DNA from: an uncultured Muribaculaceae bacterium
GTDB lineage: Bacteria > Bacillota_I > Bacilli_A > RF39 > UBA660
Reading direction: 5' to 3'
Assembly (NCBI GenBank): GCA_964370755.1
Contig: CAYJKL010000002.1
Location: forward strand, 7,712 to 71,711
DNA: 64,000 nucleotides
Shown: positions 6,413 through 34,003 of the stretch, one piece after another
Numbering within the stretch: position 1 is the first letter of the stretch
Layout: each line of letters opens with the position of its first letter
The notes under the pieces: generated by a model
The model's input: the letters and a program-made list of their open reading frames with translations, nothing else
What the model was told of the DNA's origin: nothing
The model's database searches: none
Position numbers and translations under genes: made by a program

Positions 6413-9202
6413 TTACAGAACTAATTGTAAATTATTTTTTTCACTTGCAATTAAGTTTTTAAACTCTTCTACTGAATAATAATATTTATCTTTGTATTTA
6501 ACACAATTAGTAAACTTAAAATCTTCTGGCCAAACAAACTCACTTAAGCTACTGAGCATATTTATATCAAGTATTCCATCTATAAACTTTGGCATTCTTT
6601 TATTATTACCATGTTCTAGTGAACTTAAAATTAAGTCTCCCCATACTTCGTTAGGCATTTTGAAATTTTCTATATCTATACATCTTTTCATATATAGCCC
6701 ACCTTTAAATCTAGAAGACACTTCTAAATTTGATGCACTTTTTAAACTACTTAAATAACATATTCCAGTAAAATCATCAGGTATTTTTAAATATTTTGTT
6801 TCTGTTAGACTACTTAGATCTAAATAGTAACATATTCCACTAGGTAATGGAATGTTATCTATATTTTTGATATTTGTTAAAAATAAACTTCCATTTAGTT
6901 TTTCAGGTAACGAGTTATCTTCTAAGTATTCAACACTATTTAAATACAAAGAACCGTTTATATCAATAGGAAGGTTATAATACTTAAGAGTCTTTATTTT
7001 ATTTAATTTTAAATATCCACCTAATTTCTGTGGTAATGTTATATTATTTATAACTTTAACATTTTCAAGATTTATGTATCCTTTGAAACTTTTGTGAAAT
7101 GTAAAATCATTAAGTTCTTCTAAATCAGGAAAACTATAAAAATAATTAGTTCCAATTGGGACTGTTATATTACTTAAACTTTTGATACCTGATATTTTGA
7201 TACCGCCATGCACTTCTTTTGTTAATGTTCCTTTTTCTAAGTTTTGTGGATATTCGATTCTTAATTCTTGTTCTATTATTTCTGGTAAAATTACGCCTTC
7301 AAAATCGTTTGGATAAGTTATACTAAGCGAACCTCTTAGTATTTTAGGAAATACAATATTTTTTAAATCTACTTTATTATTAAATGTAATATTACCTTTA
7401 TAATCTTCGGGAAACACTAGTTTATTATCGTATTTAATTTTAGAAAAATATAAATCCCTTGTTTCAGTTGGTAATGGAAAATCTTTTAAATTATTTTCAT
7501 CTTTAAATATCATTTCGTTTTCTACGTATTTTGGTAACTCAAAAATGCTCATATCTGATATATTTTTAAATTCAAGGGCACTTTCCATAGCGTAATTAAG
7601 TTTTATTTTCTCTTTGCAACTAACATTATCAAAAGTGAAATTTATATCATTATATATAGAAAGGTCTAGTTCACTTTCGAAGTTACAGTTTTTAAACTCA
7701 ACACTATTATAATCTCTTAGTATTTCAATTTCATTTTCTATTTTTGCGCCAATTAATATTAATTTTCCACTGATCTCTTCAGGCAGAAGAAAGTCTTTAA
7801 ATGACTTATTTAAATTTAATGTTAAATCTCCTACTATTACTTTTGGAAACGTTACTGTTTTATAGTCAACATTTTCATCGTATATTAAGTTTCCATGAAA
7901 GTAATATGGTGCAATAAATCCAGCTGATACTTTAATAGGCCATCCGTATGTTTTGAAAAATTTTATTTTTTTACCACTTAAAAGTTCTTCTTCATTAAAA
8001 GTTATTTCATCTTCTGTACATGATAACGCATATGCTAAATCTTTTTTAGAGTCTCTATCCTTAATAATTTCATAAACTCTTTCATCTGGTTTTCCATTTA
8101 TAAACTTTAGTTTTCTTCTGACTTCGTGCAGAAACCGAATCTCTTCTTTATCTAAGTCTTCTTTATTTAAATGTTTTTCATATATTTTATCAATTATACT
8201 TTTATCATGAAAATACATAGAATATTCACTGTAATTTTTAAAATCTCTTAATTTAAAATTTAAAGTATCTAAGAATTCTTCTGCTACTTCTTGGTTTCCT
8301 GTTGTACCTCTAACTTCAACAATGCAGTTATTTACTACTCTTATTGAAATTTTTGGAAGACTAAAATATTTTTTTACATCTTTAGCATAATATACATAGA
8401 ACTGACCTTCTTTTAAGATGTTTGCTGCCATATTTTTATTAAGAACACACCAGTTAGTTCCTTTACCTTCTAAATCTTGCATTAAAAAATCTACATCATC
8501 TGCACCTTCATATAACATCCATTTTCCATTCGGTTTATAGACGTTTCTTTCATATAAATCAAAACTTCTATGATACATTATGTTTTTATAACAAAATTCA
8601 TATAACTTTCTAAAACTACCATTTTGAAGAAGTAATAAAGCTTCTGTATCATTTCCGGTAAATTTTCCTTCCGCATATTCTTGCATTAAATTAATTACGG
8701 CTTTGATTACGTCCCTATCAAACTCAACAAAAGGATTCGTGGTTTTCGTTGTTCTTCTTGTAAATTTATTATTTTTTCCATCATATGAGCCAATTGATGT
8801 TATACCTACAAATGCCCAGTACAATAGCCAATCTGGATATTTTTGCATTTCTGTACTTAAGAAAAAATCTATAAACTTTCTTAATGATTCTTCTTGATCC
8901 ATTATTACGTTAATTCTGTCTTGTAATCTTTCAAAATAACAATATTCGTCTGAGTCTCCTCTAGCAAGAAGTAGTTTTTCTCTTTTTTTAAAGTATTCTT
9001 CAGGAATATCTCTCATTACATATCTATCAATTAGTAAGTTTTTGATTTTTTCTTTTCTATCAGTTTCAATAGTTTTACTAACAACTCTTTGTAATTTTTC
9101 TAAATATTTCCTTATTTTTTCTGGTGGAGTTAATGATAAATTCCCATTATAAAGCAAGTATAAATCTTTATAAATAATATTTAAAAATTCGTATCCGTTC
9201 AT
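6413..9202 (-). CDS. Large (929 aa) cytoplasmic protein: unknown N-terminal ~430-aa domain plus ~500 aa of ~21-23-aa LRR-like repeats (xLPxxIxGxLxLxx...)
   Basis: No signal peptide. Repeats such as ITLPQKLGGYLKLNKIKTLKYYNLPIDINGSLYLNSVEYLEDNSLPEKLNGSLFLTNIKNI are visible by eye. It has its own promoter-like TTTACT-17-TAATAT after the upstream terminator and is co-directional with the phosphoesterase. Confidence 0.7.
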   Translation of the reverse strand: MNGYEFLNIIYKDLYLLYNGNLSLTPPEKIRKYLEKLQRVVSKTIETDRKEKIKNLLIDRYVMRDIPEEYFKKREKLLLARGDSDEYCYFERLQDRINVIMDQEESLRKFIDFFLSTEMQKYPDWLLYWAFVGITSIGSYDGKNNKFTRRTTKTTNPFVEFDRDVIKAVINLMQEYAEGKFTGNDTEALLLLQNGSFRKLYEFCYKNIMYHRSFDLYERNVYKPNGKWMLYEGADDVDFLMQDLEGKGTNWCVLNKNMAANILKEGQFYVYYAKDVKKYFSLPKISIRVVNNCIVEVRGTTGNQEVAEEFLDTLNFKLRDFKNYSEYSMYFHDKSIIDKIYEKHLNKEDLDKEEIRFLHEVRRKLKFINGKPDERVYEIIKDRDSKKDLAYALSCTEDEITFNEEELLSGKKIKFFKTYGWPIKVSAGFIAPYYFHGNLIYDENVDYKTVTFPKVIVGDLTLNLNKSFKDFLLPEEISGKLILIGAKIENEIEILRDYNSVEFKNCNFESELDLSIYNDINFTFDNVSCKEKIKLNYAMESALEFKNISDMSIFELPKYVENEMIFKDENNLKDFPLPTETRDLYFSKIKYDNKLVFPEDYKGNITFNNKVDLKNIVFPKILRGSLSITYPNDFEGVILPEIIEQELRIEYPQNLEKGTLTKEVHGGIKISGIKSLSNITVPIGTNYFYSFPDLEELNDFTFHKSFKGYINLENVKVINNITLPQKLGGYLKLNKIKTLKYYNLPIDINGSLYLNSVEYLEDNSLPEKLNGSLFLTNIKNIDNIPLPSGICYYLDLSSLTETKYLKIPDDFTGICYLSSLKSASNLEVSSRFKGGLYMKRCIDIENFKMPNEVWGDLILSSLEHGNNKRMPKFIDGILDINMLSSLSEFVWPEDFKFTNCVKYKDKYYYSVEEFKNLIASEKNNLQLVL

Positions 9203-18366: not shown

Positions 18367-20967
18367 TTATGGAATGTTACTTACTATTGATTCGTACATT
18401 GTGATTGCAAACCTTGATGAATGGTGACCATCAGCTTGTCCCGTAAATAGTGTATATGAGAAAACTCCATTTGCATCTGTATTTGAGAAGAATAAGCTTC
18501 CACCTCTATATATCCAGTGGTATCCATAGTAGGATGCTGAAAATCTTGGATCTCCTAAATATCTATCTTCATAATAATAAATCGTTTCAGTAAGTGCATC
18601 ACCTTTAATTGGTGAAACATCTCCTAATGTATATTTTCCACTAGGGTATACATTTATATATCTTCCTTCTGGCATTGTTGTAAACCCTGATTGATCTGGA
18701 ATAAATTGACCACTTGAATCTAATAATATTCCCATTACCCTATCAAATGTTCCACCTACCATATCATATACTCCGTAAATATTACCTGTTGTTGATGCTC
18801 CCATTCCGTAATATGTATCGTATTTATTAGTGTAACATGTTGCTGTTGTACTTCCTTGATGTGGTGTTGATCCACCAATACCTGTTATATATGTACTACA
18901 GTTGTTAATATAAATTTCTTTATTTGCACCTGTATAATCAGTATTACCATATTTACCATATTTAGATTGTGATAAATACGCTATTGCTCCCCACTCAGTA
19001 TTTTTAATAAGGTGGGCATCTACGTATCCAACATAACCATAGTTATTATATCCATTAACTCCATTCATTAAATCTTGAACATAATTAAATGTTGCTGAAA
19101 TACTCATATTTATCATTGGTCTTACATTTGGTTTAGAATACAGTATATCCCCTACTTTAGATGCTTCGAATTTTGCAACCCAGAAACCTTTTGTTTCAGT
19201 ATTTTCAGAGTTTCCTCTTGTTGCTGGATCGTCACATGAATTACCCCAACAAAATGCTGATGATGTATAATAATTTTCTGCATAGTTTCCAGTATATGTT
19301 CCTGAGCCATTATCTATTTGATCTGGACCAATAAATTTAATATCCATAGCTCCAGGAGTCACTGTACTTACTGAGCTACCACCATATCCTTGTACTCCAT
19401 ATTGATCTTTAATCGTATATGAATACCTTGGAATCCAAACTAGCATAGATGTCATATGATTCATCTCTACTGGTGTCCCTGGTTCTGCATCTACATAAAA
19501 ATCTTTCATAGAATTTATAACTGATGCTGCATTTGCCCATTTTATTTCTGAGTAATCATACCACTCACCATTAACTACATCTGCTTTTTCCCATTTATCT
19601 ATGTAGTCATTGTAAGATATTGGAATTAAACCATCAATAATTTCTGGAGTTGAACCATTAAGAGTTTCATCTTTGTATAATTCGCCTTCTTGATATATAT
19701 ATTCAAGATTAAATATAAGTTCATTACTCGTTATAGTACTATCACCATTATATTCTATATAAAATGTTGACACTGTACCAGGTTCAAATTCGTGATATAA
19801 ACTCATTCCTGTTGTAAGAATTTTTATACCTAGCGTATTTGCTAGTTCTTCCATATTTTTCAAATAATAATAATTTGCTGTTGTATTTTCAATTGTTACT
19901 TCATATCTAAATGTTGAAACTCCAGCTGGTAAATTTAAGTGTACATTAGTTGATGTATCTGTAAATGATGCAGGTGATACTTCGGTTACACCACTTGAAT
20001 TTCCCACTAAGTTTATTGCAGTTACTTTAATTCCTTCTGCTTCTGGTTTTTCTACTAAGATAAAGTCATCAATAGTAATTACGTCACTAGGGTTAGTTTT
20101 ATAGAAAATATATGTTATTGTTTCGTTTTTTTCTACTTTGAACTCAATTTCATTTATATAACCATTACTTCCAACACTTTCATTATAGTAATCACCTTTA
20201 GCAATATGAAGTTTATCTGAGTTCCATCTTAAGAAAAAACTTTTTGCTCTATAAGAATAGTTACTAACTACTATTTTTTCATAATCTGCGTATGATTCAT
20301 GAGTTATTACTACATCTTCTTCTGATAATTCGCCTTTTTTCAGATGAAATTCTCCAGTTAAAGTTTTTTCGTATGGAGATGATGACTTAGCAGTTATACT
20401 TACATCTACATTATCAGGTATTACACCATCTGCTGCCTCAATTAGAAAGAAATGATTTAAACTAGTGTTTCCATTAACCCATGTATAACCTCTATTATTA
20501 CAAGTGTCTTCATCAAGTAAACTTGTGTCTACTCCATCAGTTGTATCATTTCTACACACAAGAATTTTTTCAAGACTTCCAGAATATTTATTACTTCCAC
20601 TTGCATTTACATTACAAGATAAATTACCTGTTGAGTCGCTTGTTACAGTACACTCAATGTTGTAATTTATTGCTTCTTCTGAAACTGATAGTTCATCTTT
20701 GAAGTTTGATAACTCAAAGTATACTGCTCCACCATCCCAGTTATTATCTACATTTACTCCGTCATCAAGATGAGCACTTGTAAAATAGAAGTTTTGGGAT
20801 TCTAGATACTGCTCCCAAACTATATTTCCTACGTATTTAGCAAAAGAAAAGACAGATACGCCAATAAATATTATTGCTATTATCATTAAGAATAATACGT
20901 TCGCTTTTCTTAAATTTAAATTTTTAAAGATTTTATTGTTTTTGAATTTTAATTTAAACTTCTTCAT
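18367..20967 (-). CDS. 866-aa secreted/surface protein: SipW-cognate-like N-terminal signal (…VSVFSFAKYVGN) and C-terminal FGE-sulfatase (SUMF1)-like domain
   Basis: Basic N-terminus, hydrophobic core, then an S-F-A-x-Y motif as in TasA/camelysin signals. The C-terminal region has FWVAKFE(ASK), NTEWGAIAY, GVYDMVGGTFDRV and YRGGSLFF, resembling the FGE-domain motifs FxMGKYEVT / PTEAEWEYA / GLYDMSGNVWEW / LRGGSW. Confidence 0.7.
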   Translation of the reverse strand: MKKFKLKFKNNKIFKNLNLRKANVLFLMIIAIIFIGVSVFSFAKYVGNIVWEQYLESQNFYFTSAHLDDGVNVDNNWDGGAVYFELSNFKDELSVSEEAINYNIECTVTSDSTGNLSCNVNASGSNKYSGSLEKILVCRNDTTDGVDTSLLDEDTCNNRGYTWVNGNTSLNHFFLIEAADGVIPDNVDVSITAKSSSPYEKTLTGEFHLKKGELSEEDVVITHESYADYEKIVVSNYSYRAKSFFLRWNSDKLHIAKGDYYNESVGSNGYINEIEFKVEKNETITYIFYKTNPSDVITIDDFILVEKPEAEGIKVTAINLVGNSSGVTEVSPASFTDTSTNVHLNLPAGVSTFRYEVTIENTTANYYYLKNMEELANTLGIKILTTGMSLYHEFEPGTVSTFYIEYNGDSTITSNELIFNLEYIYQEGELYKDETLNGSTPEIIDGLIPISYNDYIDKWEKADVVNGEWYDYSEIKWANAASVINSMKDFYVDAEPGTPVEMNHMTSMLVWIPRYSYTIKDQYGVQGYGGSSVSTVTPGAMDIKFIGPDQIDNGSGTYTGNYAENYYTSSAFCWGNSCDDPATRGNSENTETKGFWVAKFEASKVGDILYSKPNVRPMINMSISATFNYVQDLMNGVNGYNNYGYVGYVDAHLIKNTEWGAIAYLSQSKYGKYGNTDYTGANKEIYINNCSTYITGIGGSTPHQGSTTATCYTNKYDTYYGMGASTTGNIYGVYDMVGGTFDRVMGILLDSSGQFIPDQSGFTTMPEGRYINVYPSGKYTLGDVSPIKGDALTETIYYYEDRYLGDPRFSASYYGYHWIYRGGSLFFSNTDANGVFSYTLFTGQADGHHSSRFAITMYESIVSNIP

Positions 20968-20978
20968 ATCTGTCCTCT

Positions 20979-23900
20979 CTACTTAACTACGAAATTTTTC
21001 TCTATTGATGATATTAATGTATCTCCATCATAACTATCAATAATGAATTTATAACCTTGCTTTTCTAAACTAGTTAAATCTAGTTCAAAATTAAAGTTAT
21101 TTGAATCTACTAAGTATTTATTTGCTTCACTTGTAGTGTCTAAACTTCCTACTATGTAATCATTTAAATTAATAAGTGAATATGTTTGACTAGCTGCATT
21201 AAATTCATCTTTTTTATAAAGTGATATTCTAACATTTGATGTCGTTAGACCAGTTACTGCTGATGAAATATTTATTATTTCTGTTTCATTTTCACTATTT
21301 AAAATTGGATCATTATTTATAATTGCTCTAAATGAGTAATTACTACTTTCTGCACTTTTAGTTACTGTAAGTGGAATACTATCTTCTGCTAAGTAATTCC
21401 CCATATGCTCTGTATATGAAATATAACTTGTCATTACTAAATTATATCTTCCTTCTTCTAAAAACGAGTCTGTTTTATATGCATGTAGCTCAATATTTTT
21501 ATTTATCTCTTGTATACCTGTATTTAGGTTTACTATAAATTCTCCATTTTCATTTGGATAATATGATTCTCCATCTATTTTTAATATTAAATTATTAAGC
21601 TTAGCTCTAGGAACTGTTTCGTCATAATCATCGTATAACTTAAATTTTAAATATATGTCCTGTTCTTCAATAAATGTATCAAATATATTATAACTTCCAT
21701 TTGCTTTGTAAGTTACTCCTGTATTTACATTTATATTAGTTATTGAATCAGAATTATATTTTAAATATACACTACTAGTTGCGCTTCCTATAAACATACT
21801 TGCATCAGTATTATGATATACATTAAATGGTTTAACACTTGATGCTGCGGTTTCCCTAATTGCAGTATCTGATGCATCAATTGCTTCTAGCCATACTCTA
21901 ATGTCTGTTAAATGTGATGTCATTAGTGCTGCATCAAAATTTATTGTTATTGTAAAGTTTTCTACAATATTAGTACCATTATCATAGTCTCTTTCAGCGT
22001 AATATTCACCTTTTGTACCTAGTTTATTAAACTGTGTAAACATTATACTCTCGCCATCACTTGATTTAATTTTATAATCATACTTACTTCCTGTTATGTT
22101 ATCAGTAATAATTATTACAGTTCCTCCTGGAAGTTGTTTATTAAAATTAATTGTGTGTCTTATAGCTGGAAGGGATTCAGTTGGTATATTATATAAATAA
22201 TTTAATCTAACTGATGAATTACTTGTTACATTTAGTATATCACCAACAGTATAAGCTCCGTTTAAACCAGCGTCAATTGAATTTAAAAAGTATCCTTCAA
22301 ATGTGATCATATCACTATTTAAAAATGATATGTTTCCACTTCTATCCATTGCTCTTGCATATAATATATTATTTCCTACCGGACTTATAGAAAAGTCTCC
22401 AGTATAATTTATCCAGCTTGCTTCATTTAAATTACTTAATTCATCTTTACTCATTGTATCATTACTTAAATAGTAAGATATTTCATCAATGCCTGAATTT
22501 TCATCAGTTGCTGTAATTTTAAAATCAGCGTTATCTTCCATATATATTTCAGTTACATCTTTTCTGTAACTATCCCATACATTACCACTAAATTCTAAAC
22601 TAGCTGTAGGAGCATTTTTGTCAATAACGATTCTATCAGTACTCATATATTTAATATCACCACTATACGTAGTAAGTTTTACATATACAGTATACGCACC
22701 TTCATCACTTAATTTAAGTGATGCCTCATAAGGCAACCATGAAGCTGCCTCTAACATTGTTTCATCATAATTAATATCTTCATAACTTATAAAGTACTCA
22801 ACATTTTCAAGTGTATAAACATAAGCTGAAGAAGTTACCGCAACTGTTATTTCATCATTATAATATACAAAATCATTATTAGATGCAAGTTTATTCCAAG
22901 ACTTACTACCAATTCTTATATCAACTAAATTTACTTCATTTACAAAATATAGTTCTGGAAGTAAGTTTTCATTATATACCCAAACATCTTCAGTTTTATC
23001 TACTACTTTATTAAAGTCTCCAAACATTAAACTATCAAAATTTTCTCTCGTGAATGTTGTATCTAATAATAATATATTTTCATTTTCCTCAGTACTGCTA
23101 TTATATACGTTTTCTAGTGTTGTGTCTTCATAATTGTTTAAAACTATAACTCCGTCACTTTTATTAAATGAATTACTTACCGTTACTACACTATCTTCGT
23201 TAACTGTACCTATAAATGAACTTTCATTTACAAGTGTTCCACTGTTATATGTATTATCTATAGTTACTGTTCCTTTTGAAACACTTCCTACTATTGCATT
23301 TGAGTAAACATCTCCACTAACACTACCTGTGTTATATGAATTTTTTATACTTACATCACCAGTAACATTACCAATAAATCCACTTGATGATATAATATTA
23401 TCTACTTTTACATCAGTAACTACATTTCTTATATCAGTGTTTTTTGCAGTATTTAAAAGTCCACTTGATGATGATAATTTATATACTGTTTCATATTCTA
23501 AATTAATTAAAGATATATTTCTTTCTTTTGTATCTGCTCCAATATAAAGGGTCGTTTCATTAATTTGTGTATTACCTAAATCTACACTAAAAGCTCCAAG
23601 AGGAACACTTATATCATTTATTTTTATTTCATAATTTAATTCTTCTTTATCACTAACTACATAATCACCACTTATACTTGATGAGATTATATCTTCATTT
23701 AAATAACTATTGTCAAATATTTTAATTGTTCTTTCTTCTAAACCAGTTGTTAAATTTATATTTTCATGTTTCTTAACATCAGTTTTATTTTCAACGGCAC
23801 CACTAGATACTGCATATCCATTAATAAATACATCTTCAATTTTACTATCACTACTATTTATTGCAAGTCCTGCTACATTGTCTTTACCAAGTACAAGCAT

Positions 23901-24479
23901 ATTTTCAATAAATATATTTTCAATTGTACCACTTAGATTATCAAAAAGTGCTAAAGATTCGTTACTTGCACTTGTTATATACATTCCGTAAATTGAGTAA
24001 AAAGATCCATCTAGGTTACCTTTGAAATTTTCAATGCTTCCTTCAAAAGAATTTACTACTACCTCGCTTGATGCACTATACTCTTTATCTGTATATACCT
24101 CATTTGTATATTTTTTTATATAGTATTCTTCTTCTAAAGACATGTATTTAACACCTGAATTTTCATAAACGAAATATCCGTTGTTAAGTATAATATCATT
24201 ACCTAGTTTAAAATATACTCCACTGTAATCAGTTGATTTTAGTTCTTCTGCAAAATACGCAAATTCTGCTCCACTAGTAATCATATATGGATCATCTTTT
24301 GACCCTGTTCCTGAATTATAACTTTCTGCAATTGAACCATCCCATACGGGTAGATTTCCTGGAAGTGCCCACTGATTGGCAAACCTTGATAACGTCGGTG
24401 TTGCAAATGATACAATCGCAACAAGTACTAAAACACTAATTAAAACTTTTTTTCTATTTAATTTCTTTAATTTTCTCAC
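20979..24479 (-). CDS. 1166-aa secreted/surface protein: SipW-cognate-like signal (…TLSRFANQW), G(S/T)xxDPYxI cap and beta-helix/GLUG-like repetitive core
   Basis: Apparent GTG start with RBS AGGAG. Repeats such as GNVTGDVSIKNSYNTGSVSGDVYSNAIVGSVSKGTVTIDNTYNSGTLVN. Promoter-like TTGTCA-18-TATTAA upstream, preceded by a T9 tract. Confidence 0.7.
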   Translation of the reverse strand: MRKLKKLNRKKVLISVLVLVAIVSFATPTLSRFANQWALPGNLPVWDGSIAESYNSGTGSKDDPYMITSGAEFAYFAEELKSTDYSGVYFKLGNDIILNNGYFVYENSGVKYMSLEEEYYIKKYTNEVYTDKEYSASSEVVVNSFEGSIENFKGNLDGSFYSIYGMYITSASNESLALFDNLSGTIENIFIENMLVLGKDNVAGLAINSSDSKIEDVFINGYAVSSGAVENKTDVKKHENINLTTGLEERTIKIFDNSYLNEDIISSSISGDYVVSDKEELNYEIKINDISVPLGAFSVDLGNTQINETTLYIGADTKERNISLINLEYETVYKLSSSSGLLNTAKNTDIRNVVTDVKVDNIISSSGFIGNVTGDVSIKNSYNTGSVSGDVYSNAIVGSVSKGTVTIDNTYNSGTLVNESSFIGTVNEDSVVTVSNSFNKSDGVIVLNNYEDTTLENVYNSSTEENENILLLDTTFTRENFDSLMFGDFNKVVDKTEDVWVYNENLLPELYFVNEVNLVDIRIGSKSWNKLASNNDFVYYNDEITVAVTSSAYVYTLENVEYFISYEDINYDETMLEAASWLPYEASLKLSDEGAYTVYVKLTTYSGDIKYMSTDRIVIDKNAPTASLEFSGNVWDSYRKDVTEIYMEDNADFKITATDENSGIDEISYYLSNDTMSKDELSNLNEASWINYTGDFSISPVGNNILYARAMDRSGNISFLNSDMITFEGYFLNSIDAGLNGAYTVGDILNVTSNSSVRLNYLYNIPTESLPAIRHTINFNKQLPGGTVIIITDNITGSKYDYKIKSSDGESIMFTQFNKLGTKGEYYAERDYDNGTNIVENFTITINFDAALMTSHLTDIRVWLEAIDASDTAIRETAASSVKPFNVYHNTDASMFIGSATSSVYLKYNSDSITNINVNTGVTYKANGSYNIFDTFIEEQDIYLKFKLYDDYDETVPRAKLNNLILKIDGESYYPNENGEFIVNLNTGIQEINKNIELHAYKTDSFLEEGRYNLVMTSYISYTEHMGNYLAEDSIPLTVTKSAESSNYSFRAIINNDPILNSENETEIINISSAVTGLTTSNVRISLYKKDEFNAASQTYSLINLNDYIVGSLDTTSEANKYLVDSNNFNFELDLTSLEKQGYKFIIDSYDGDTLISSIEKNFVVK

Positions 24480-24607
24480 AATAGCCTACTCCTATAATTA
24501 ATATAATTGTATCACACTTTTTGACAAAAAAAAACAAATTAATTGAAATTAATTCATCTTTTACAAATATGCTATGATTATTTACATTTATTATGTTAAC
24601 AACTGCG

Positions 24608-24644
24608 GGTGGCGGCCAGACATTCGCCTGGCAAGTTCGCCACC
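24608..24644 (-). other. GC-rich nested hairpin (GGTGGCG-GCCAG-loop-CTGGC-AAGTT-CGCCACC) immediately 3' of the 470-aa gene
   Basis: Two nested perfect stems (7 bp and 5 bp) in a ~65% GC patch within a ~28% GC genome. There is no U-run after it on the minus transcript. Confidence 0.6.
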
Positions 24645-24655
24645 TTGCTCCGGTT

Positions 24656-26068
24656 TTAGCCTACGATGAACGGATCAGCAGAGCTTCCCGTTCCACCTAA
24701 AATTTTTGTAGAAGAGCTCAGATACATGACAGGGAGAACCACATAGCCAAATCCCACTTCGTTGTTAATCGCATAGCCGCTATAGTTCACATACCACGAA
24801 GACGAAGAAGTAGACGCTCTATGCGAAATTGTCCAGCAATTACTTCCTAAAAACATCCAATTGTTAGCTGGAATATTGTATGTTTTATAATCATATAAAT
24901 CTGTTGTCCAAGCGATACTATAAGCTGCGTACCCATAATCACTCGGGTACATTAAACCAATATTTTCTACTGTAGTTGTTGCATATAAATTATTATAACT
25001 TGTATTACTTTTTTCTGCTGTTAAGTGCTCTTTTGCTGTCATTCGATAATCACTTGTACTACCCAAATTCCAAGTAGTTTCCATTATCATACTTTGATAA
25101 CTTGCTGGTATTGTATTATAAAAATCATTATTAAGGTACGTATTTAAACTTGAATTTACCCAATCATTCACATCGCCACTATCCCAAGCCATATTCGCTA
25201 TAAACGTGTTTCTAATAAGTTTCATTTCATAACCATTTCCATTATCAAAGTAACCTATTATTCTGTATATATTATCTGCAGGACATGGTGATACATCACT
25301 TCCAAAACACACGTAGTTATTTGCTACTACTGCGTTTGACCCTGAATATCTATAACTATTATCATTTGCTCCATTTTCGAGATTTGAATCGTGATAAAAT
25401 AAACCATTTGTATCATTGTGAGATGCGATTAAAGTTTCTGCTCCAGTTAATTCTATTTTTTCATTTTGAAGTATAAACTCTGCATCAAGTGTCTTTCCTT
25501 CATTAAGAGCTTGATTAGTTGTTAGGTTTACGAATGTGATTTCTGCTTCCCACTCTTGCGTAGTTGTTGTGTTTCCGCTTATTTCGTAGTCTTCAGATAC
25601 TTTTATTAGACCTTTATATTCAGTTATGTCATATATTCCAGGAGATACTGCGGTAAGACCTGATAGAGTTACTGCTGCACCATCTGGGTCTGTAATACTT
25701 AAAAGTATTTCCGGTGTTTTAGCAGCTGTTGTATAAACAAATGTGTTTGCCGCTATATCAAAATATATATTGTAGTTGTCTGTTGCGTTTGCTACATTAG
25801 TTCCAAGTGTAAGCGTTGCGCTTGATGTAGTAGACCCTGATACATTACCTCCACCTTCAGCAAGTGTTGTTTCATTTAGTTCTAAGTTAATTGCTGTTCC
25901 TTCAGTAAATGTAAGTTTAGTAGTCTGCCCACTTGCTACATTTACATCAGTGTTTGCTGCAGGTCCTGCTCCTCCTGCGAAAAAAGCGTATGATAAACTA
26001 GTTGTCAAAACTAATAGACTTGCTACTAGAACAATCATTCTTGTTTTTGATTTTCTTTTTAGTTCCAT
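24656..26068 (-). CDS. 470-aa secreted protein with a TasA/camelysin-like (SipW-cognate) N-terminus (…SLSYAFFAGGAG) and an aromatic/Asn-rich C-terminal domain
   Basis: Signal ends in the AFF motif typical of camelysin/TasA. It is followed by a Gly/Ala/Thr-rich beta-type region. The 3' ~200 nt use GC-rich codons (GGC, CCG, ACG) atypical for the window. Confidence 0.65.
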   Translation of the reverse strand: MELKRKSKTRMIVLVASLLVLTTSLSYAFFAGGAGPAANTDVNVASGQTTKLTFTEGTAINLELNETTLAEGGGNVSGSTTSSATLTLGTNVANATDNYNIYFDIAANTFVYTTAAKTPEILLSITDPDGAAVTLSGLTAVSPGIYDITEYKGLIKVSEDYEISGNTTTTQEWEAEITFVNLTTNQALNEGKTLDAEFILQNEKIELTGAETLIASHNDTNGLFYHDSNLENGANDNSYRYSGSNAVVANNYVCFGSDVSPCPADNIYRIIGYFDNGNGYEMKLIRNTFIANMAWDSGDVNDWVNSSLNTYLNNDFYNTIPASYQSMIMETTWNLGSTSDYRMTAKEHLTAEKSNTSYNNLYATTTVENIGLMYPSDYGYAAYSIAWTTDLYDYKTYNIPANNWMFLGSNCWTISHRASTSSSSWYVNYSGYAINNEVGFGYVVLPVMYLSSSTKILGGTGSSADPFIVG

Positions 26069-26085
26069 TTTATATCTCCTTTACT

Positions 26086-26103
26086 ATGTTATAACTATAA
26101 CAT
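26086..26103. promoter_or_regulatory. 18-bp palindrome ATGTTATA-AC-TATAACAT in the 5' UTR, 4 nt upstream of the SD of the 470-aa gene
   Basis: Read directly from the sequence. It could be an operator or a 5'-UTR hairpin next to the RBS AAAGGAG. Confidence 0.45.
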
Positions 26104-26162
26104 TTAACTTTGTTTTTTTCAAGTATTTTACAAAAAAATAATACACATAACATGTATTATTT

Positions 26163-27146
26163 TCAACTTTTTATAGCAAGCACTATAAGTCCTACTAAGA
26201 TAAGTGCTGATACTCCTATGATAATATATTTAAGAGAACTATTTTCTTCTTTTTCCTCTTTTTCTTCGATTACTAGAGAGTCTGTGTTTTCTTCATTTTC
26301 ATTATTTTCTTCTGTTACTTCTTCTTCTGTTTCTATGTTTTGCTGCTCTCCAGCTGGCAAGTTTTTTTCTACTAAGGTGTAGATTCCAGGTTCGTTTACA
26401 GTAAATGCGTACATACCATTTTCATTTGTTACGTCAATATAATTCCCACTTACTAAATCATTATTTAGATTTATTGCTGCGATATTTTCTGAAACGGAAG
26501 ATGCGTTTAAATATACTTTAATATCATCGTGAAAATTATCTATTTTTTCATACTCTGTACTGTAATTATAATTATTATTTTCTATTACTGTGTATGTTGC
26601 ACTTATATCATATATATTGTTTGATGCAAGTGTTATGTTATTACTTGTTATAAAGCTTTGTTTATCGCTTGTTACATCGTTTACTTTTACATCATAATAT
26701 ATTTGCTCAGTGTACTGATTTTTATAGACTTGACCGCTTTTGTATGTTTCACTAAAACTTACTAAAAGCTTATAATTGTCACTTGATACTTCTAAAGCAT
26801 CAATGTTTTCAACTGTAACATCTACTTTACTTTCATCACCTTCAATAAGCGTTTCGTCTAAAAACCAATAATATGTTAAATAATCTTCATAGTCTTGCAC
26901 TACTGGAAAACTAAATGTTTCATCTATTAAATCATCTTCATTTGCTATAGCAAGATAATCTTGAACAGTCATTGTTGTTTTTCTTACATAAAGGTAACTA
27001 TCCATCGGATAAATCATATTAACTTCTGTGTAATCTTCATTATATGTTTGTAAATGAGGAGACCCGCCTTTATCTATGTGAGGACAAGCAAAAACATTAA
27101 GGGGAAGCATACATATACATATAATAATTTTAAATATTTTCTTCAT
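26163..27146 (-). CDS. 327-aa surface protein with a Sec signal (MLPLNVFA|C) and a C-terminal TM anchor preceded by an acidic E-rich linker
   Basis: Hydrophobic N- and C-termini. It shares the unusual LPLNVFA signal core with the upstream YibE/F-like protein and is coupled to it by a 17-nt overlap. Confidence 0.6.
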   Translation of the reverse strand: MKKIFKIIICICMLPLNVFACPHIDKGGSPHLQTYNEDYTEVNMIYPMDSYLYVRKTTMTVQDYLAIANEDDLIDETFSFPVVQDYEDYLTYYWFLDETLIEGDESKVDVTVENIDALEVSSDNYKLLVSFSETYKSGQVYKNQYTEQIYYDVKVNDVTSDKQSFITSNNITLASNNIYDISATYTVIENNNYNYSTEYEKIDNFHDDIKVYLNASSVSENIAAINLNNDLVSGNYIDVTNENGMYAFTVNEPGIYTLVEKNLPAGEQQNIETEEEVTEENNENEENTDSLVIEEKEEKEENSSLKYIIIGVSALILVGLIVLAIKS

Positions 27147-28242
27147 CTTTTGTTTTTCCTTTCTTGTTTATAAGTATAAATACAAATATCGTAATTGGTA
27201 TTGATGCAAGTAGACCAATGCTCCCTGCTATTGCCCTTATTATTTCTGTTGAAATTGATTCTAAGTTAATTATTTCACTAACACTTTTTTCAAAACCTAC
27301 GAATAATAGTATTGTAGATAAAGAACTTCCAGTATAAGCTAGTATTAATGTATTAACCATTGTACCCATAATGTCTTTACCTATATTAAATCCAGATTTA
27401 ATTAATTTTTTATCACTTATTTTTGGATTATGACTTTTAATTTCAGTAAGTGAGGAAGTAAGCTCCATCGCAACATCCATACATGCTCCGAGCGCTCCAA
27501 TTATTATACCTGCAAATAGTAAGCCTTTGAAATCAAACTCAAACTCTAACTGTAAGTAATATAGCATTTGCTCACTTTCTGATGCTACTCCAGTTAAGTG
27601 CATAATTGATGAGAAAATAGTAGCAATTAGTCCCGCTAAAACAAGGCCACCTACTACTCCTATTATTGCTACTAGAGTTTTTTTAGTAAATCCATTTGTA
27701 ATTACAAATGTTAGTACCGTTGATAATATACATGTTACTACTGATAATAATACCGGACTATATCCTTTAAGCAAAAGTGGTATTAAACCAAATAATATTA
27801 GAAGGATTGTAATTATAAGCGAGATAAGTGCTTTAAGTCCTTTTATTTTTCCAAGAATTATTACAAACAACATAAATATTATTATTAATAAAATTAGATA
27901 ATTTGATTTTTCGAAACTATGGAAGTAGAAAGATACTTCATCACCTTCGGTAGTTGCTACTACATTTATTTTATCACCTTCTGAAAGTTCTATATCATTA
28001 CTTCCTCCAGTAAGTGTATTAGTAATAGTGTCTTTTGAACCTTCGTACTTATCACTAAGTATTTCAATTTCTAAAGTTTGAATTTTCGTATCATTTATTT
28101 CTTTTATTTCTAGAACTTCTATAACTTTAGCAACGTATAAATCTGTTTGAAATTCTTCACTTAAATTTTCATTTGACGCAAAAACGTTAAGTGGTAATAT
28201 TAGAAATACTATTAAAAGGAGTAATTTACTCTTTATATTCAT
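27130..28242 (-). CDS. Polytopic membrane protein, probably YibE/F family, with an N-terminal ~95-aa extracytoplasmic domain
   Basis: Signal peptide (ILPLNVFA|S), then 6-7 TM helices with a GACMDVAMELTSS segment resembling the conserved YibE/F MDVAMS motif. Confidence 0.55.
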   Translation of the reverse strand: MNIKSKLLLLIVFLILPLNVFASNENLSEEFQTDLYVAKVIEVLEIKEINDTKIQTLEIEILSDKYEGSKDTITNTLTGGSNDIELSEGDKINVVATTEGDEVSFYFHSFEKSNYLILLIIIFMLFVIILGKIKGLKALISLIITILLILFGLIPLLLKGYSPVLLSVVTCILSTVLTFVITNGFTKKTLVAIIGVVGGLVLAGLIATIFSSIMHLTGVASESEQMLYYLQLEFEFDFKGLLFAGIIIGALGACMDVAMELTSSLTEIKSHNPKISDKKLIKSGFNIGKDIMGTMVNTLILAYTGSSLSTILLFVGFEKSVSEIINLESISTEIIRAIAGSIGLLASIPITIFVFILINKKGKTKDEENI

Positions 28243-28807
28243 AAGCTTCTAAAACCATTTCTTGATGTCTTTCATCTATTCTATTAATTCCTGGTATTAA
28301 ACTGTTATAAAAATATATATCAGTAACACCTATCATTCCATTATCTCTTATATAATCTAGGTTTATCCCAGAACCTGTTGCTCCGCTTCTGTTATCAATT
28401 ATTTCTCCGTATGGATAATTTTCATCACCAGAGTGTTCAAATGGCGCGATTGATGCAGCTATTTTTGTATCACCAATTGTAACTATAATAGGTCTTCTTA
28501 TAATAGACCAAACTCCGCCCGATGTACTTTTAAGTTTATCTGTATCTTCCTGCGTTAAAGTTTCAACGTCAGCAAGCGTATCAAATCCACCTTCAATTCT
28601 TCTAACGTTATATGTAGTTCCAGTTTCAATATCATAAACTTCTGCTTCCATTCCTTCTTCAAAAAGTTCTAAAGCATCTACATAATTCATTAACTCTGAA
28701 TAACTTGTTTCTTCCGGAGAAGTTGTTGTTTCTACTGGTTTTTCTTCCTCGCCGCATCCTGCAGTTAGTAGTACTAAACCCATTATCATAAATAATTTCT
28801 TTTTCAT
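28226..28807 (-). CDS. Lipoprotein (lipobox LTAGC) with a possible DPBB/3D-like beta-barrel domain
   Basis: MKKKLFMIMGLVLLTAGCG. The C-terminal IVTIGDTKIAASIAPF...EIIDNRSGATGSGINLDY loosely resembles RlpA/3D DPBB segments. 17-nt overlap with the next gene. Confidence 0.55.
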   Translation of the reverse strand: MKKKLFMIMGLVLLTAGCGEEEKPVETTTSPEETSYSELMNYVDALELFEEGMEAEVYDIETGTTYNVRRIEGGFDTLADVETLTQEDTDKLKSTSGGVWSIIRRPIIVTIGDTKIAASIAPFEHSGDENYPYGEIIDNRSGATGSGINLDYIRDNGMIGVTDIYFYNSLIPGINRIDERHQEMVLEAYEYKE

Positions 28808-32206: not shown

Positions 32207-34003
32207 TTATTTTTTTTCTCTCTTGTATCTTTGATATGCTTTTATATTTTCAAAGTATATACCATTAACTTCTAAATATTTATCTGCTTTTATATCTTCA
32301 TTTGATATTGATACAGTTACATAATCATAAGAATTTTTTTCTGTTAAAATATTAGGGTCAAATACTTCAAAAACATTATTTTCATCATAAACTACTAGTT
32401 TTAAGTTTTCATCAATGCAATAATTCGTAAAATTTTCTAGTACTGTTTCTCCAGTTTTTAATGATACTATTTTATACATATTATCTATTTTAATTAAAAT
32501 GTAGTTAACCATAAAGCATATAACTTCACTTACATTATCATGAAGTATTTCTCCTGTTATAACATCTCCTATTTCAAACGAATTATTTATATCTTCACTA
32601 ATTTCCCAGACACTAGATACTCCATTTTTTTGATTTTCTATGCGTTCACTTGGTGCCATAGTTACTAATTGTTTTGTAATTTTCTTTTCTTTATTTGCTA
32701 TGAATATTTTGTTTTTTAGTAATTCTAAATGCAAAGCGTCATCATAAATTTGTTCTTTTTTATTTGCGTCATAAATAAAGTATTTAAGTGTATTATCTTC
32801 ATCCCTTTTAGTACATAGAAATATGTTTGCATCTTTTACGTTTAATTTTTCTATTCGAAATAGAGGATTTTTAATTTCCATTTCTCCTGTTACAACATTA
32901 TATAAATACCATCCATCACCACATAATATTATTGAATGGGTATAACTTGCAGATTCATAACCTTTAACACCTGACTTTAATATACTTTCTTTCCCACTGC
33001 TATAGTTGAATAAATATTCTTCATTATTTTTATTTTTACAAATTGCAAATGTATCACTTATACTGTTTAATACTTCATCGCCCTCTTTTAGTATTATCTC
33101 GCCATTTGATGGATCTATAAGTGTTTTTTTGTTATCTATTTTGGCAAGTAATACAACCTTTTTTTGGTTTTTGACTTCTATAACCTTAATTAATTTAAAA
33201 CTTCCTATAAGTTCATCTATTCCATCTAGTAATGTTGTATTATTTTCATTTTCGTTGTCTATTAGTACATAAGAGTTATTTGATACGTATTTTATATAAT
33301 AAGAACCGTAAAATATTCTAGTCATTTTTGTTTTTCTATCGTATAGTTGTATTATTTTTTGATTTTTTGCTATCATTAAATCTCCAACACAAAGCATATC
33401 TTCTTTGTTTATAGAACCATCAAAAATATATTCTTCAGTTTCACCACAAAGTATGTTACAAAAGTCTTTTTTTTCTAATGTAAAATAATTATTGTGGCCA
33501 TGTTTATGCACAAGTTCTAAATCACTTTCTATTAAATCTCCAGAAAAATTGTAAATATCTGTATATGTTTTTTTCTTGTTTTCGCGAACATTAAGAAATA
33601 AACCACTTTCTTCGTAATATTCATCATCTTCTTCTGCTTTTTTCGAGTATACTATTTCTCCTTTTTTTGCGTTATAAATTTCTAAGTTTCCATCGATTGT
33701 ATCACATAAAAATACATATCCATGTCTTTGATTATGCAAATCTTGAATACACTTATATTCACAGTCAAATATTATTTTTCTTTTCTCTAAATCATAAAGT
33801 CCATCTAAGTTATTTTCCTCTGTCATTATTATGAATTTATCATCTATAATTAGAAATCCTTTTTTGTAATTACATGGAAAAATTTCTCTTTTATTACTAT
33901 CTAAAAGTCCATAGTTATTTCCTTTTTTAGTTAAGTAAAAATTTTCTCCATATTCGTATTTTTCTATTTTATCGTACTCTTTGTACATTATTACATTTGG
34001 CAT
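32207..34003 (-). CDS. WG-repeat (KWG-like) containing protein, 598 aa
   Basis: Repeats of the form NYGLLDSNKREIFPCNYKKGF... / DGLYDLEKRKIIFDCEYKCI match the WG beta-repeat pattern (GkwGlid.nGk.viPp.Yd). Confidence 0.6.
   Translation of the reverse strand: MPNVIMYKEYDKIEKYEYGENFYLTKKGNNYGLLDSNKREIFPCNYKKGFLIIDDKFIIMTEENNLDGLYDLEKRKIIFDCEYKCIQDLHNQRHGYVFLCDTIDGNLEIYNAKKGEIVYSKKAEEDDEYYEESGLFLNVRENKKKTYTDIYNFSGDLIESDLELVHKHGHNNYFTLEKKDFCNILCGETEEYIFDGSINKEDMLCVGDLMIAKNQKIIQLYDRKTKMTRIFYGSYYIKYVSNNSYVLIDNENENNTTLLDGIDELIGSFKLIKVIEVKNQKKVVLLAKIDNKKTLIDPSNGEIILKEGDEVLNSISDTFAICKNKNNEEYLFNYSSGKESILKSGVKGYESASYTHSIILCGDGWYLYNVVTGEMEIKNPLFRIEKLNVKDANIFLCTKRDEDNTLKYFIYDANKKEQIYDDALHLELLKNKIFIANKEKKITKQLVTMAPSERIENQKNGVSSVWEISEDINNSFEIGDVITGEILHDNVSEVICFMVNYILIKIDNMYKIVSLKTGETVLENFTNYCIDENLKLVVYDENNVFEVFDPNILTEKNSYDYVTVSISNEDIKADKYLEVNGIYFENIKAYQRYKREKK

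Follow-up and report, generated by a model that had tools for sequence, protein, structure and literature searches.

What kind of secreted protein is encoded by three large adjoining genes on the minus strand of a gut bacterial contig, and which peptidase would release these proteins from their signal peptides? The question is raised by a 64-kb stretch of contig CAYJKL010000002.1 (~27% G+C; 'the window' denotes the whole of this stretch), in which consecutive open reading frames (ORFs) encode proteins of 866, 1166 and 470 amino acids (aa), named here P1, P2 and P3 (Table 1). The reading favoured in this work, with a probability of about 0.6 judged from sequence comparisons, is that P1–P3 are substrates of a SipW-class signal peptidase, grouped in a satellite module (P3-P2-P1) whose peptidase is encoded elsewhere in the genome. 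The whole analysis is computational, and function is deduced from sequences and models. The layout described in an earlier note on this DNA, with six consecutive minus-strand ORFs and their quoted N-terminal strings, is found at the positions it gave; its word 'giant' is generous for proteins whose sizes, although real, are 470–1166 aa.

The signal peptides of P1, P2 and P3 all close with the motif [TS]-[YFL]-[AS]↓x-[FY], where the arrow marks the predicted cut, and this motif directly follows a basic n-region and a hydrophobic core of 15–20 residues. Its window forms are S-Y-A-F-F in P3, T-L-S-R-F in P2 and S-F-A-K-Y in P1. Among the ORFs of the window, a signal-like core joined to the motif occurs in these three only; an automatic motif scan picked up P1 and P3 and left out P2, whose GTG start had been shortened by the ORF caller. 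Database homologues keep the motif in 120 of the 120 listed cases for P3, 20 of 21 for P2 and nine of nine for P1. The 120 listed P3 homologues, from a family with >2000 relatives, all read [AV]-[TS]-[YF]-A-[YF]-F, while the 21 full-length relatives of P2 follow P-[TS]-[LF]-[AS]-[RK]-[FY] and the nine relatives of P1 follow [ST]-Φ-A-[KR]-[YF].

Sequence logos locate the conservation around the predicted cut. The P3 family shows T/S (99%), Y/F (99%) and A (99%), then Y/F and F (96%), with A28 and F30 of P3 itself conserved at ≥90%. The P2 family shows P (89%), T/S (99%), L/F (88%) and A/S (93%), then R (76%) and F/Y (84%), and P28 is nearly invariant. For the P1 family the order is S/T (99%), F/Y/L and A (88–89%), then K/R (88–95%) and Y/F (99%). 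Counted across the motif families, small residues reach at least 95% at the putative P3 and P1 sites of the cleavage nomenclature (positions −3 and −1), and F/Y makes up 84–97% at position P2′. The signal of TasA ends T-W-A↓A-F, and an aromatic P2′ residue has been tied to poor processing by LepB and to dedicated cleavage by SipW, an enzyme of the endoplasmic reticulum (ER) type (PMC10269814). The motif of P1–P3 reproduces this ending, aromatic P2′ residue included. The idea that it represents the general signal type of the organism was discarded: other exported proteins of the window lack it, among them a YibE/F-family protein that ends VFA↓SN. Relatives of P2 that share its GLUG domain and lie outside the conserved locus described below have ordinary VSA↓ signals, so it is the locus, and not the domain, that the special signal follows.

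This locus came to light when one genome per GTDB species was scanned with the P2 alignment, followed by ORF calling and protein clustering. The scan yielded 76 P2-family loci, all from metagenome-assembled genomes (MAGs) of uncultured Bacilli, 'Mollicutes' or Bacillota. Dozens of them share a conserved order of 15–18 genes: m232 - TYAWF×3-5 - ac54 - cyt543 - P2 - cam180 - P1N - S181A - SP697 - mem509 - c377 - S181B - LAWF406 - TYSRY209. In this order TYAWF stands for three to five copies of 'STYAWF' proteins of ~425 aa, ac54 for an acidic protein of 54 aa, cyt543 for a cytoplasmic protein of 543 aa and P1N for P1N294, a stand-alone counterpart of the N-terminal part of P1. At least eight families of the locus carry the signal motif described above, which is conserved in the P1, P2 and P3 families and in five further families of the parent locus.

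Two of the conserved genes encode peptidases of the relevant class. S181B and the N-terminal domain of SP697 contain SGSMEP or QTGSM, ITH(R/E)V and TKG(D/L)AN motifs; they score 74.5 and 71.8 bits, respectively, with TIGR02228 (cutoff 51.85), and a Bacillus SipW model recovers them with E ~1e-17 and ~1e-16. By these motifs and scores, both are bona fide archaeal/ER-type signal peptidases. An active-type peptidase is present in 30 of the 39 loci that have at least 8.5 kb of flank downstream of P2, and in several other loci (L037, L068) the peptidase block is transposed upstream.

A link to TasA itself is provided by cam180. Peptidase_M73 (PF12389), the only recurring Pfam family in the locus, matches 10 of 47 cam180 members (best E = 1e-5), and hhalign aligns cam180 with TasA over 81 columns with 80.5% probability (E = 1.3e-5). 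In this alignment 'GITYS-x-F' falls in register with 'GGTWA-A-F', and an LxPGD...F.V.N block is matched; a search of the PDB with the cam180 profile did not find TasA. Profile comparisons further connect cam180 with the N-terminal domain of P3 (93.5% probability) and with P1N294 (96.4%). The TasA-like domain that had been proposed for the 470-aa protein has only indirect support, from this profile link, and none from fold searches.

Several other members of the locus are unusual in themselves. S181A (176–181 aa), a paralogue with the SipW fold that directly follows P1N294 (L048:15241-15774 and 49 other loci), has an N-terminal transmembrane (TM) segment, a KGDLVLV region and a C-terminal TM segment. 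It was considered as an active SipW and rejected, as it lacks the SGSM serine and the THR/TKGDAN motifs and reaches E = 0.11 only with the SipW model; it appears to be a conserved pseudo-peptidase beside its putative substrates. In the SP697 family (L048:16028-18283; 37 loci) the peptidase domain is fused to a C-terminal region of ~500–600 residues that has no family matches, an architecture not seen in known SipW enzymes (~190 aa). A membrane-anchored McrB-like AAA+ protein (L048:18280-20959, JAEYYH010000032.1) holds the same position in ~30 loci. It carries Walker A GISGTGKTS and Walker B IILDEMNiARVEYYF, matches the PADLOC candidate family PDC-M26A (E = 8e-33) and in every case has a DUF2357 protein (PF09823, E = 1.5e-11) as its partner. 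It is surprising to find a McrBC-like pair fixed between genes for two signal peptidases; the pair could serve as a motor for assembly or form a defence module embedded in the locus.

The window keeps only a fraction of this locus. P2, a core protein of the locus, and P1N are orthologous to their counterparts and the P2→P1 order is maintained, while tblastn finds neither cam180, nor the peptidases, nor any other component. The closest relatives (L006-L013, 33–54% identity) likewise contain only P2-(cam180)-P1, at varied housekeeping positions. Because the rest of the locus is absent and the closest relatives are similarly reduced, the cluster is best described as a satellite module with products that would undergo processing in trans, and not as the self-contained system first envisaged. 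Service in trans is supported by one MAG (CAYJHB01), in which a reduced module (L011) exists alongside a full locus (L071). The P3 family, distinct from those of P2 and P1 and much larger, is usually a scattered single gene in human-gut contigs, and P3 adjoins P2 in this window only.

The competing explanation that survives best takes P1–P3 for ordinary Sec-exported proteins, cleaved by signal peptidase I (SPase I) or retained as N-terminally membrane-anchored adhesins. The motif would then be a lineage-typical feature of the c-region or juxtamembrane segment with no dedicated peptidase, and the proteins would be independent surface lectins or adhesins. This explanation is unlikely, yet it draws on a series of observations that weigh against assignment to the SipW class. 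The T/S-x-A/S site, with its small residues at −3 and −1, is also compatible with ordinary SPase I. No sipW is present in the window, as had been noted: a six-frame scan of the 64 kb for SGSMxP and KGDNN was empty, and tblastn with ~120 SipW-type sequences from related loci returned nothing. The closest P2-P1 modules (L006-L013) also lack a nearby peptidase. Genes of the 470-aa family are orphan and scattered, and ~25 long loci of this family contain no adjacent SipW peptidase, no gene of the large locus and no YibE/F gene. Curated models are silent as well. TIGR04088 matches neither P1–P3, nor their isolated N-termini (E <= 10), nor nine family members, and TIGR04089/90 and Peptidase_M73 match neither P1–P3 nor nine family members even at E <= 10. 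As a control, a B. subtilis TasA sequence does match TIGR04088 (38 bits, cutoff 19) and scores 514 bits on the TasA equivalog model, so the family matches anticipated for the three proteins are not borne out. TIGR04088 also covers ~17 residues past the cleavage site, and these differ in the P1–P3 families. Aligned directly to TasA, P3 places TWA↓AF in register with a profile score that is not significant. Fold searches with the N-domain of P3 did not return TasA, and AlphaFold2 (AF2) models show the N-termini of P3 and P1 as long helices.

Other observations speak against ordinary export. The five-residue element, with its near-invariant aromatic P2′ residue, recurs in at least eight otherwise unrelated families that cluster with two ER-type peptidases, while the remaining exported proteins of the window do without it. 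Outside the locus, the signals of GLUG homologues are of the plain AxA kind, and LepB-type enzymes disfavour an aromatic P2′ residue (PMC10269814). The view that the N-termini are of the SipW type thus retains the TasA-like motif, the register seen through cam180 and the peptidases in the loci of relatives, but is left without the curated models. Weighing both sides, the TasA-type signals of P1–P3 are probably removed by an archaeal/ER-type (SipW-class) peptidase encoded elsewhere.

The three proteins combine their signals with different modules. P1 is built from the signal peptide, the P1N component, immunoglobulin (Ig)-like β-sandwiches and an FGE-type C-type-lectin domain. Its N-terminal domain and P1N294 are related over all 306 P1N294 residues (36% identity, tblastn E = 6e-58; hhalign probability 100%, E = 3e-76). 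The AF2 model has predicted local distance difference test (pLDDT) scores of ~80–90 at residues 60–520 and is poor beyond, including residues 640–866. TaqVP, whose C-type-lectin fold is of the FGE subtype (bioRxiv 10.1101/432187), gives the best PDB sequence match of the C-terminus. The FGE-sulfatase-like domain previously suggested for this protein stands at the level of the fold, which is of the FGE type and has non-enzymatic binding proteins as its best relatives, but not as a family member, PF03781 giving no match in the 866-aa protein.

The FGE-type domain of P1 is also found behind type IV pilin or pseudopilin N-termini (GFTLIE, GITLVAL) in other Bacillota, in proteins of ~540–560 aa (P0161, P0164-P0175), one of which is named PulG-like in one source. 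A single binding head would thus be used on two fibre-type N-terminal modules. Type IV pilin-like genes (N_methyl, GFTLIELLAVIV) at L001:6782-7300 and L008:6738-7166 also lie no more than a few kb from a 470-aa-family gene and from a reduced P2-P1 module, respectively. This proximity may be coincidental; it recalls the type IV pilus dependence of the Bsa system of Clostridium perfringens.

P2 contains a GLUG-like repeat region, probably a β-helix, which pairwise BLASTP relates to proteins annotated with PF07581 GLUG (E = 1e-17 and 2e-19) and which gives a profile match to 3n6z, a 'putative IgA1 protease' (E = 1e-4). Neither PF07581 nor any other Pfam model (E <= 0.01) matches the 21 members of the P2 family, so the β-helix/GLUG-like call made earlier holds by pairwise homology but not by Pfam. 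An OmpL47-type domain recurs in P2-family members. Searches of PDB sequences by phmmer with each of the three proteins gave no match.

P3 consists of the signal peptide, a β-sandwich N-domain and a C-terminal C-type-lectin-like domain, with a mean pLDDT of 84 in the AF2 model. The C-terminal domain belongs to DUF6273 (PF19789), as indicated both by a hidden Markov model (HMM) match that reaches the gathering score and by the fold; what had been read as an aromatic/Asn-rich module is real and now has this identity. Outside the window, the same source contig (78,234 bp) carries a 62%-identical paralogue, P0003 (473 aa, ...TLTVSYSYFDS). Three further paralogues (P0005, P0012 and P0013) have N-domains that are 76–85% identical and C-termini that differ, and P0004 and P0007 (783 aa) have two DUF6273-like copies.

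Table 1. Position of the P3-P2-P1 module, its predicted domains and the adjoining trio within the 64-kb window
Feature	Coordinates	Strand	Basis
P1, 866-aa secreted protein	18367-20967	-	ORF
P1 signal peptide, residues 1-43, predicted S41-F42-A43↓K44-Y45	20839..20967	-	logos
P1 N-terminal domain, equivalent to stand-alone ~294-aa P1N294 of the full locus	20038..20931	-	tblastn, hhalign
P1 C-terminal FGE-subtype C-type-lectin-fold domain, ~residues 440-866	18370..19650	-	
P2, 1166-aa secreted protein, GTG start	20979-24479	-	ORF
P2 signal peptide, residues 1-31, predicted P28-T29-L30-S31↓R32-F33	24387..24479	-	conservation, logo
P2 GLUG-like repeat region, ~residues 39-445, probably β-helix	23145..24365	-	BLASTP
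P2 OmpL47-type / Ig-like β-barrel, residues 650-719	22323..22532	-	NF047446, 43.4 bits (cutoff 40)
P3, 470-aa secreted protein	24656-26068	-	ORF
P3 signal peptide, residues 1-28, predicted S26-Y27-A28↓F29-F30	25985..26068	-	conservation, logo
P3 N-terminal β-sandwich, ~residues 48-205; module reused with other C-termini in paralogues	25454..25927	-	
P3 C-terminal DUF6273 / C-type-lectin-like domain, ~residues 220-470	24659..25411	-	
327-aa surface protein, acidic linker, C-terminal TM anchor	26163-27146	-	ORF
370-aa YibE/F-family polytopic membrane protein	27130-28242	-	PF07907
193-aa lipoprotein, LTAGC lipobox, first gene of the trio	28226-28807	-	ORF

If P1–P3 are indeed SipW-class substrates, a possible course of events can be outlined. 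The proteins would be exported by Sec and then cleaved by the SipW-class peptidase. Through the N-terminus exposed by cleavage (x-[FY]...) and N-domains related to TasA, they would either be attached to a TasA-like fibre or matrix or become part of it, with joining by donor-strand exchange as in TasA and BsaA (PMC9674648; PMC11580942). Incorporation of P1–P3 into such a fibre, proposed by analogy, is possible at somewhat less than even odds. The C-terminal modules (DUF6273, the FGE-type C-type lectin, and the GLUG β-helix with an Ig-like domain) would act as interchangeable ligand-binding heads. Because these modules read as binding heads on fibre-joining N-domains, P1–P3 may be accessories, of the adhesin or tip type, in a fibre system that depends on SipW, and neither enzymes nor spore parts.

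A broader and more tentative proposal, for which the odds are low, is that P1–P3 and their parent locus define a surface filament system of a new kind, made of several subunits, in gut Bacilli that have small genomes and partly reduced walls. Such a system would comprise at least eight proteins with TasA-type signals, two specialised ER-type peptidases that process them before their assembly into fibres, a dead paralogue acting as chaperone or dock, possibly energy supplied by the McrB-like AAA+ and DUF2357 proteins, and exchangeable C-type-lectin heads supplied by scattered satellite genes.

The genes that flank the region suggest a different destination, namely assembly at the spore surface or exosporium, with mother-cell expression and P1–P3 decorating the spore coat. 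As reported in the earlier note, the cluster lies between spoIVA and spoVIF, both verified by HMM matches. SpoIVA (TIGR02836, E = 8e-181) is encoded on the same strand, 66 nt downstream of P1 with no terminator-like site between, and SpoVIF (PF14069, E = 1e-18) upstream of the trio of genes that precedes P3. Some relatives also have sporulation-related flanks, with SpoIIR and SpoIID in L002 and CotZ and YlbD in L001. However, the spoIVA/spoVIF position is not conserved: relatives adjoin ileS, murA, HU/ruvA or two-component genes, and the L008 module abuts HU with no spoIVA, so that the spore-surface role is left without comparative support. Coat proteins of the classical type reach the spore from the cytoplasm of the mother cell, whereas the N-terminal Sec signals of P1–P3 fit export across the cytoplasmic membrane. 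The promoter and terminator scan was uninformative (85 sites observed, 86 expected) and lends nothing to this explanation, which is very unlikely.

The trio itself was thought to be part of the same apparatus. It consists of a lipoprotein, a YibE/F-family membrane protein and a surface protein, encoded immediately upstream of P3 on the same strand after a 94-nt gap, and could be imagined as dedicated export or anchoring machinery in a six-gene system. Its internal coupling and the YibE/F assignment are confirmed: the genes overlap by 17 nt each (28226-28242, 27130-27146), the 370-aa protein matches PF07907 over the full length of the model (274 bits, E = 1e-81), and it shares with the 327-aa protein an LPLNVFA core that suggests co-evolution within the trio. 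For the other two members, the 193-aa lipoprotein found no family match in Pfam and NCBIfam scans, and the 327-aa protein gave a weak SdrD_B-like match only. A metagenome scan with the YibE/F protein returned no relatives. The N-terminus MLPLNVFA-C of the 327-aa protein could be a lipobox (VFAC) in place of an SPase I site, in which case the protein would be tethered at both ends, by an N-terminal lipid and the C-terminal TM segment, across an acidic Glu/Asn-rich linker.

The association with P1–P3 was not seen in related loci. No trio homologue occurs in the 76 loci of the 1166-aa family or in ~25 long loci of the 470-aa family, and the YibE/F protein is a singleton in the protein clustering of related loci. 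The parent locus has membrane components of its own, and the 470-aa gene is preceded by a TG-extended promoter-like site, although this last evidence is weak. The trio is a genuine, tightly coupled neighbouring operon that appears unrelated, and a dedicated export function for P1–P3 is highly improbable. Since neither the trio nor spoIVA and spoVIF accompany these families elsewhere, the trio-export and spore-surface ideas both lack support.

A phage origin of P1–P3 as receptor-binding proteins, or their use as targets of a diversity-generating retroelement (DGR), is scarcely credible. In its favour, DUF6273 and C-type-lectin folds of the FGE type are scaffolds used classically by DGRs and by phages for receptor binding (PMC10743442; bioRxiv 10.1101/432187), and among PDB sequences the P1 C-terminus matches TaqVP best. 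Against it, no significant PHROG match, no template/variable repeat pair in 14–34 kb and no phage gene or reverse transcriptase among the window ORFs was found, and the context is chromosomal and housekeeping.

How, then, does a SipW-linked reading of P1–P3 compare with known systems? Those of Bacillus subtilis (tapA-sipW-tasA) and B. cereus (sipW-tasA/calY) resemble it in an ER/archaeal-type peptidase dedicated to a set of secreted proteins, a signal ending T-Φ-A↓x-F with an aromatic P2′ residue, an accessory protein with the shared signal type, and a small camelysin/TasA-like protein, represented here by cam180 of the parent locus. They differ in that the window has neither a peptidase nor a TasA-like gene, and that P1–P3 fail TIGR04088 and Peptidase_M73. 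The substrates are also of another order. Known SipW substrates have roughly 200–260 aa, and TasA has 261 aa, whereas P1–P3 are multidomain proteins of 470–1166 aa with lectin-like or β-helix heads. Within its 15–18 genes, the parent locus encodes a pair of active peptidases, of which one is extended by a ~500-aa region, together with a paralogue that is catalytically dead and an AAA+ protein of the membrane.

The sipW-bsaA-bsaB-bsaC operon of C. perfringens encodes remote homologues of TasA and a large BsaC protein (~70 kDa, vWA); donor-strand exchange has been proposed for its polymerisation, and it is linked to type IV pilus components (PMC11580942). It is likewise SipW-linked, and its pilus link finds a parallel in the P1 C-terminal domain, which also stands behind pilin-type N-termini. 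Unlike it, the present families have no vWA domain and no TIGR04090 match, and belong to a different and much larger locus. Archaeal TasA-like filaments (the bundling pili of AbpA, PMC9245690; cannulae; DUF1102 tubes) share an archaeal-type signal peptidase and β-sandwich subunits that polymerise by donor-strand complementation, but the likeness is generic, at the level of the β-sandwich, with no sequence relationship detected. Among C-type-lectin relatives, the Thomasclavelia ramosa IgA peptidase (9qa6) has DUF6273 as its N-terminal domain, and TaqVP and TvpA are DGR variable proteins. P1–P3 differ from these in having no M64 peptidase domain, no DGR and no FGE-sulfatase Pfam match, and in carrying such domains appended to N-modules with TasA-type signals.

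SipW-dependent export is known from small Bacillus and Clostridium operons that make TasA-type biofilm fibres. The loci described here suggest that this type of signal has been extended to a far larger system, conserved in ~70 species-level genomes of uncultured Bacilli from human and animal guts. The 15–18-gene SipW-linked locus with its scattered satellites is previously undescribed, known SipW systems being three- or four-gene operons with small substrates. In the full-text literature, no paper was found that links SipW to Mollicutes, Erysipelotrichia or RF39-type lineages, or that describes substrates of the TIGR04088 type outside Bacillus and Clostridium. The motif [TS]-Φ-[AS]↓x-[FY] offers a concrete and testable definition of substrates that TIGR04088 misses, and with a revised signal model an entire class of surface proteins could be recognised in gut lineages that are poorly known, among them the DUF6273 family with its >2000 members. 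Lectin-headed proteins of this kind could let the cells adhere to host glycans, to mucus, to immunoglobulins or to other microbes; DUF6273 also heads the IgA protease of Thomasclavelia.

Two minor observations concern the surroundings of these genes. The window also encodes two large, cytoplasmic-looking repeat proteins without an obvious signal peptide, at 6413-9202 (minus strand, 929 aa) and 32207-34003 (minus strand, 598 aa). In addition, many of the source MAGs (of loci L006-L013, L024-L028 and others) are titled 'uncultured Muribaculaceae bacterium', yet their contigs are low in G+C and Bacilli-like, and some contain sporulation genes (SpoIIR and SpoIID in L002/L010); the taxonomy given by the submitters looks wrong.

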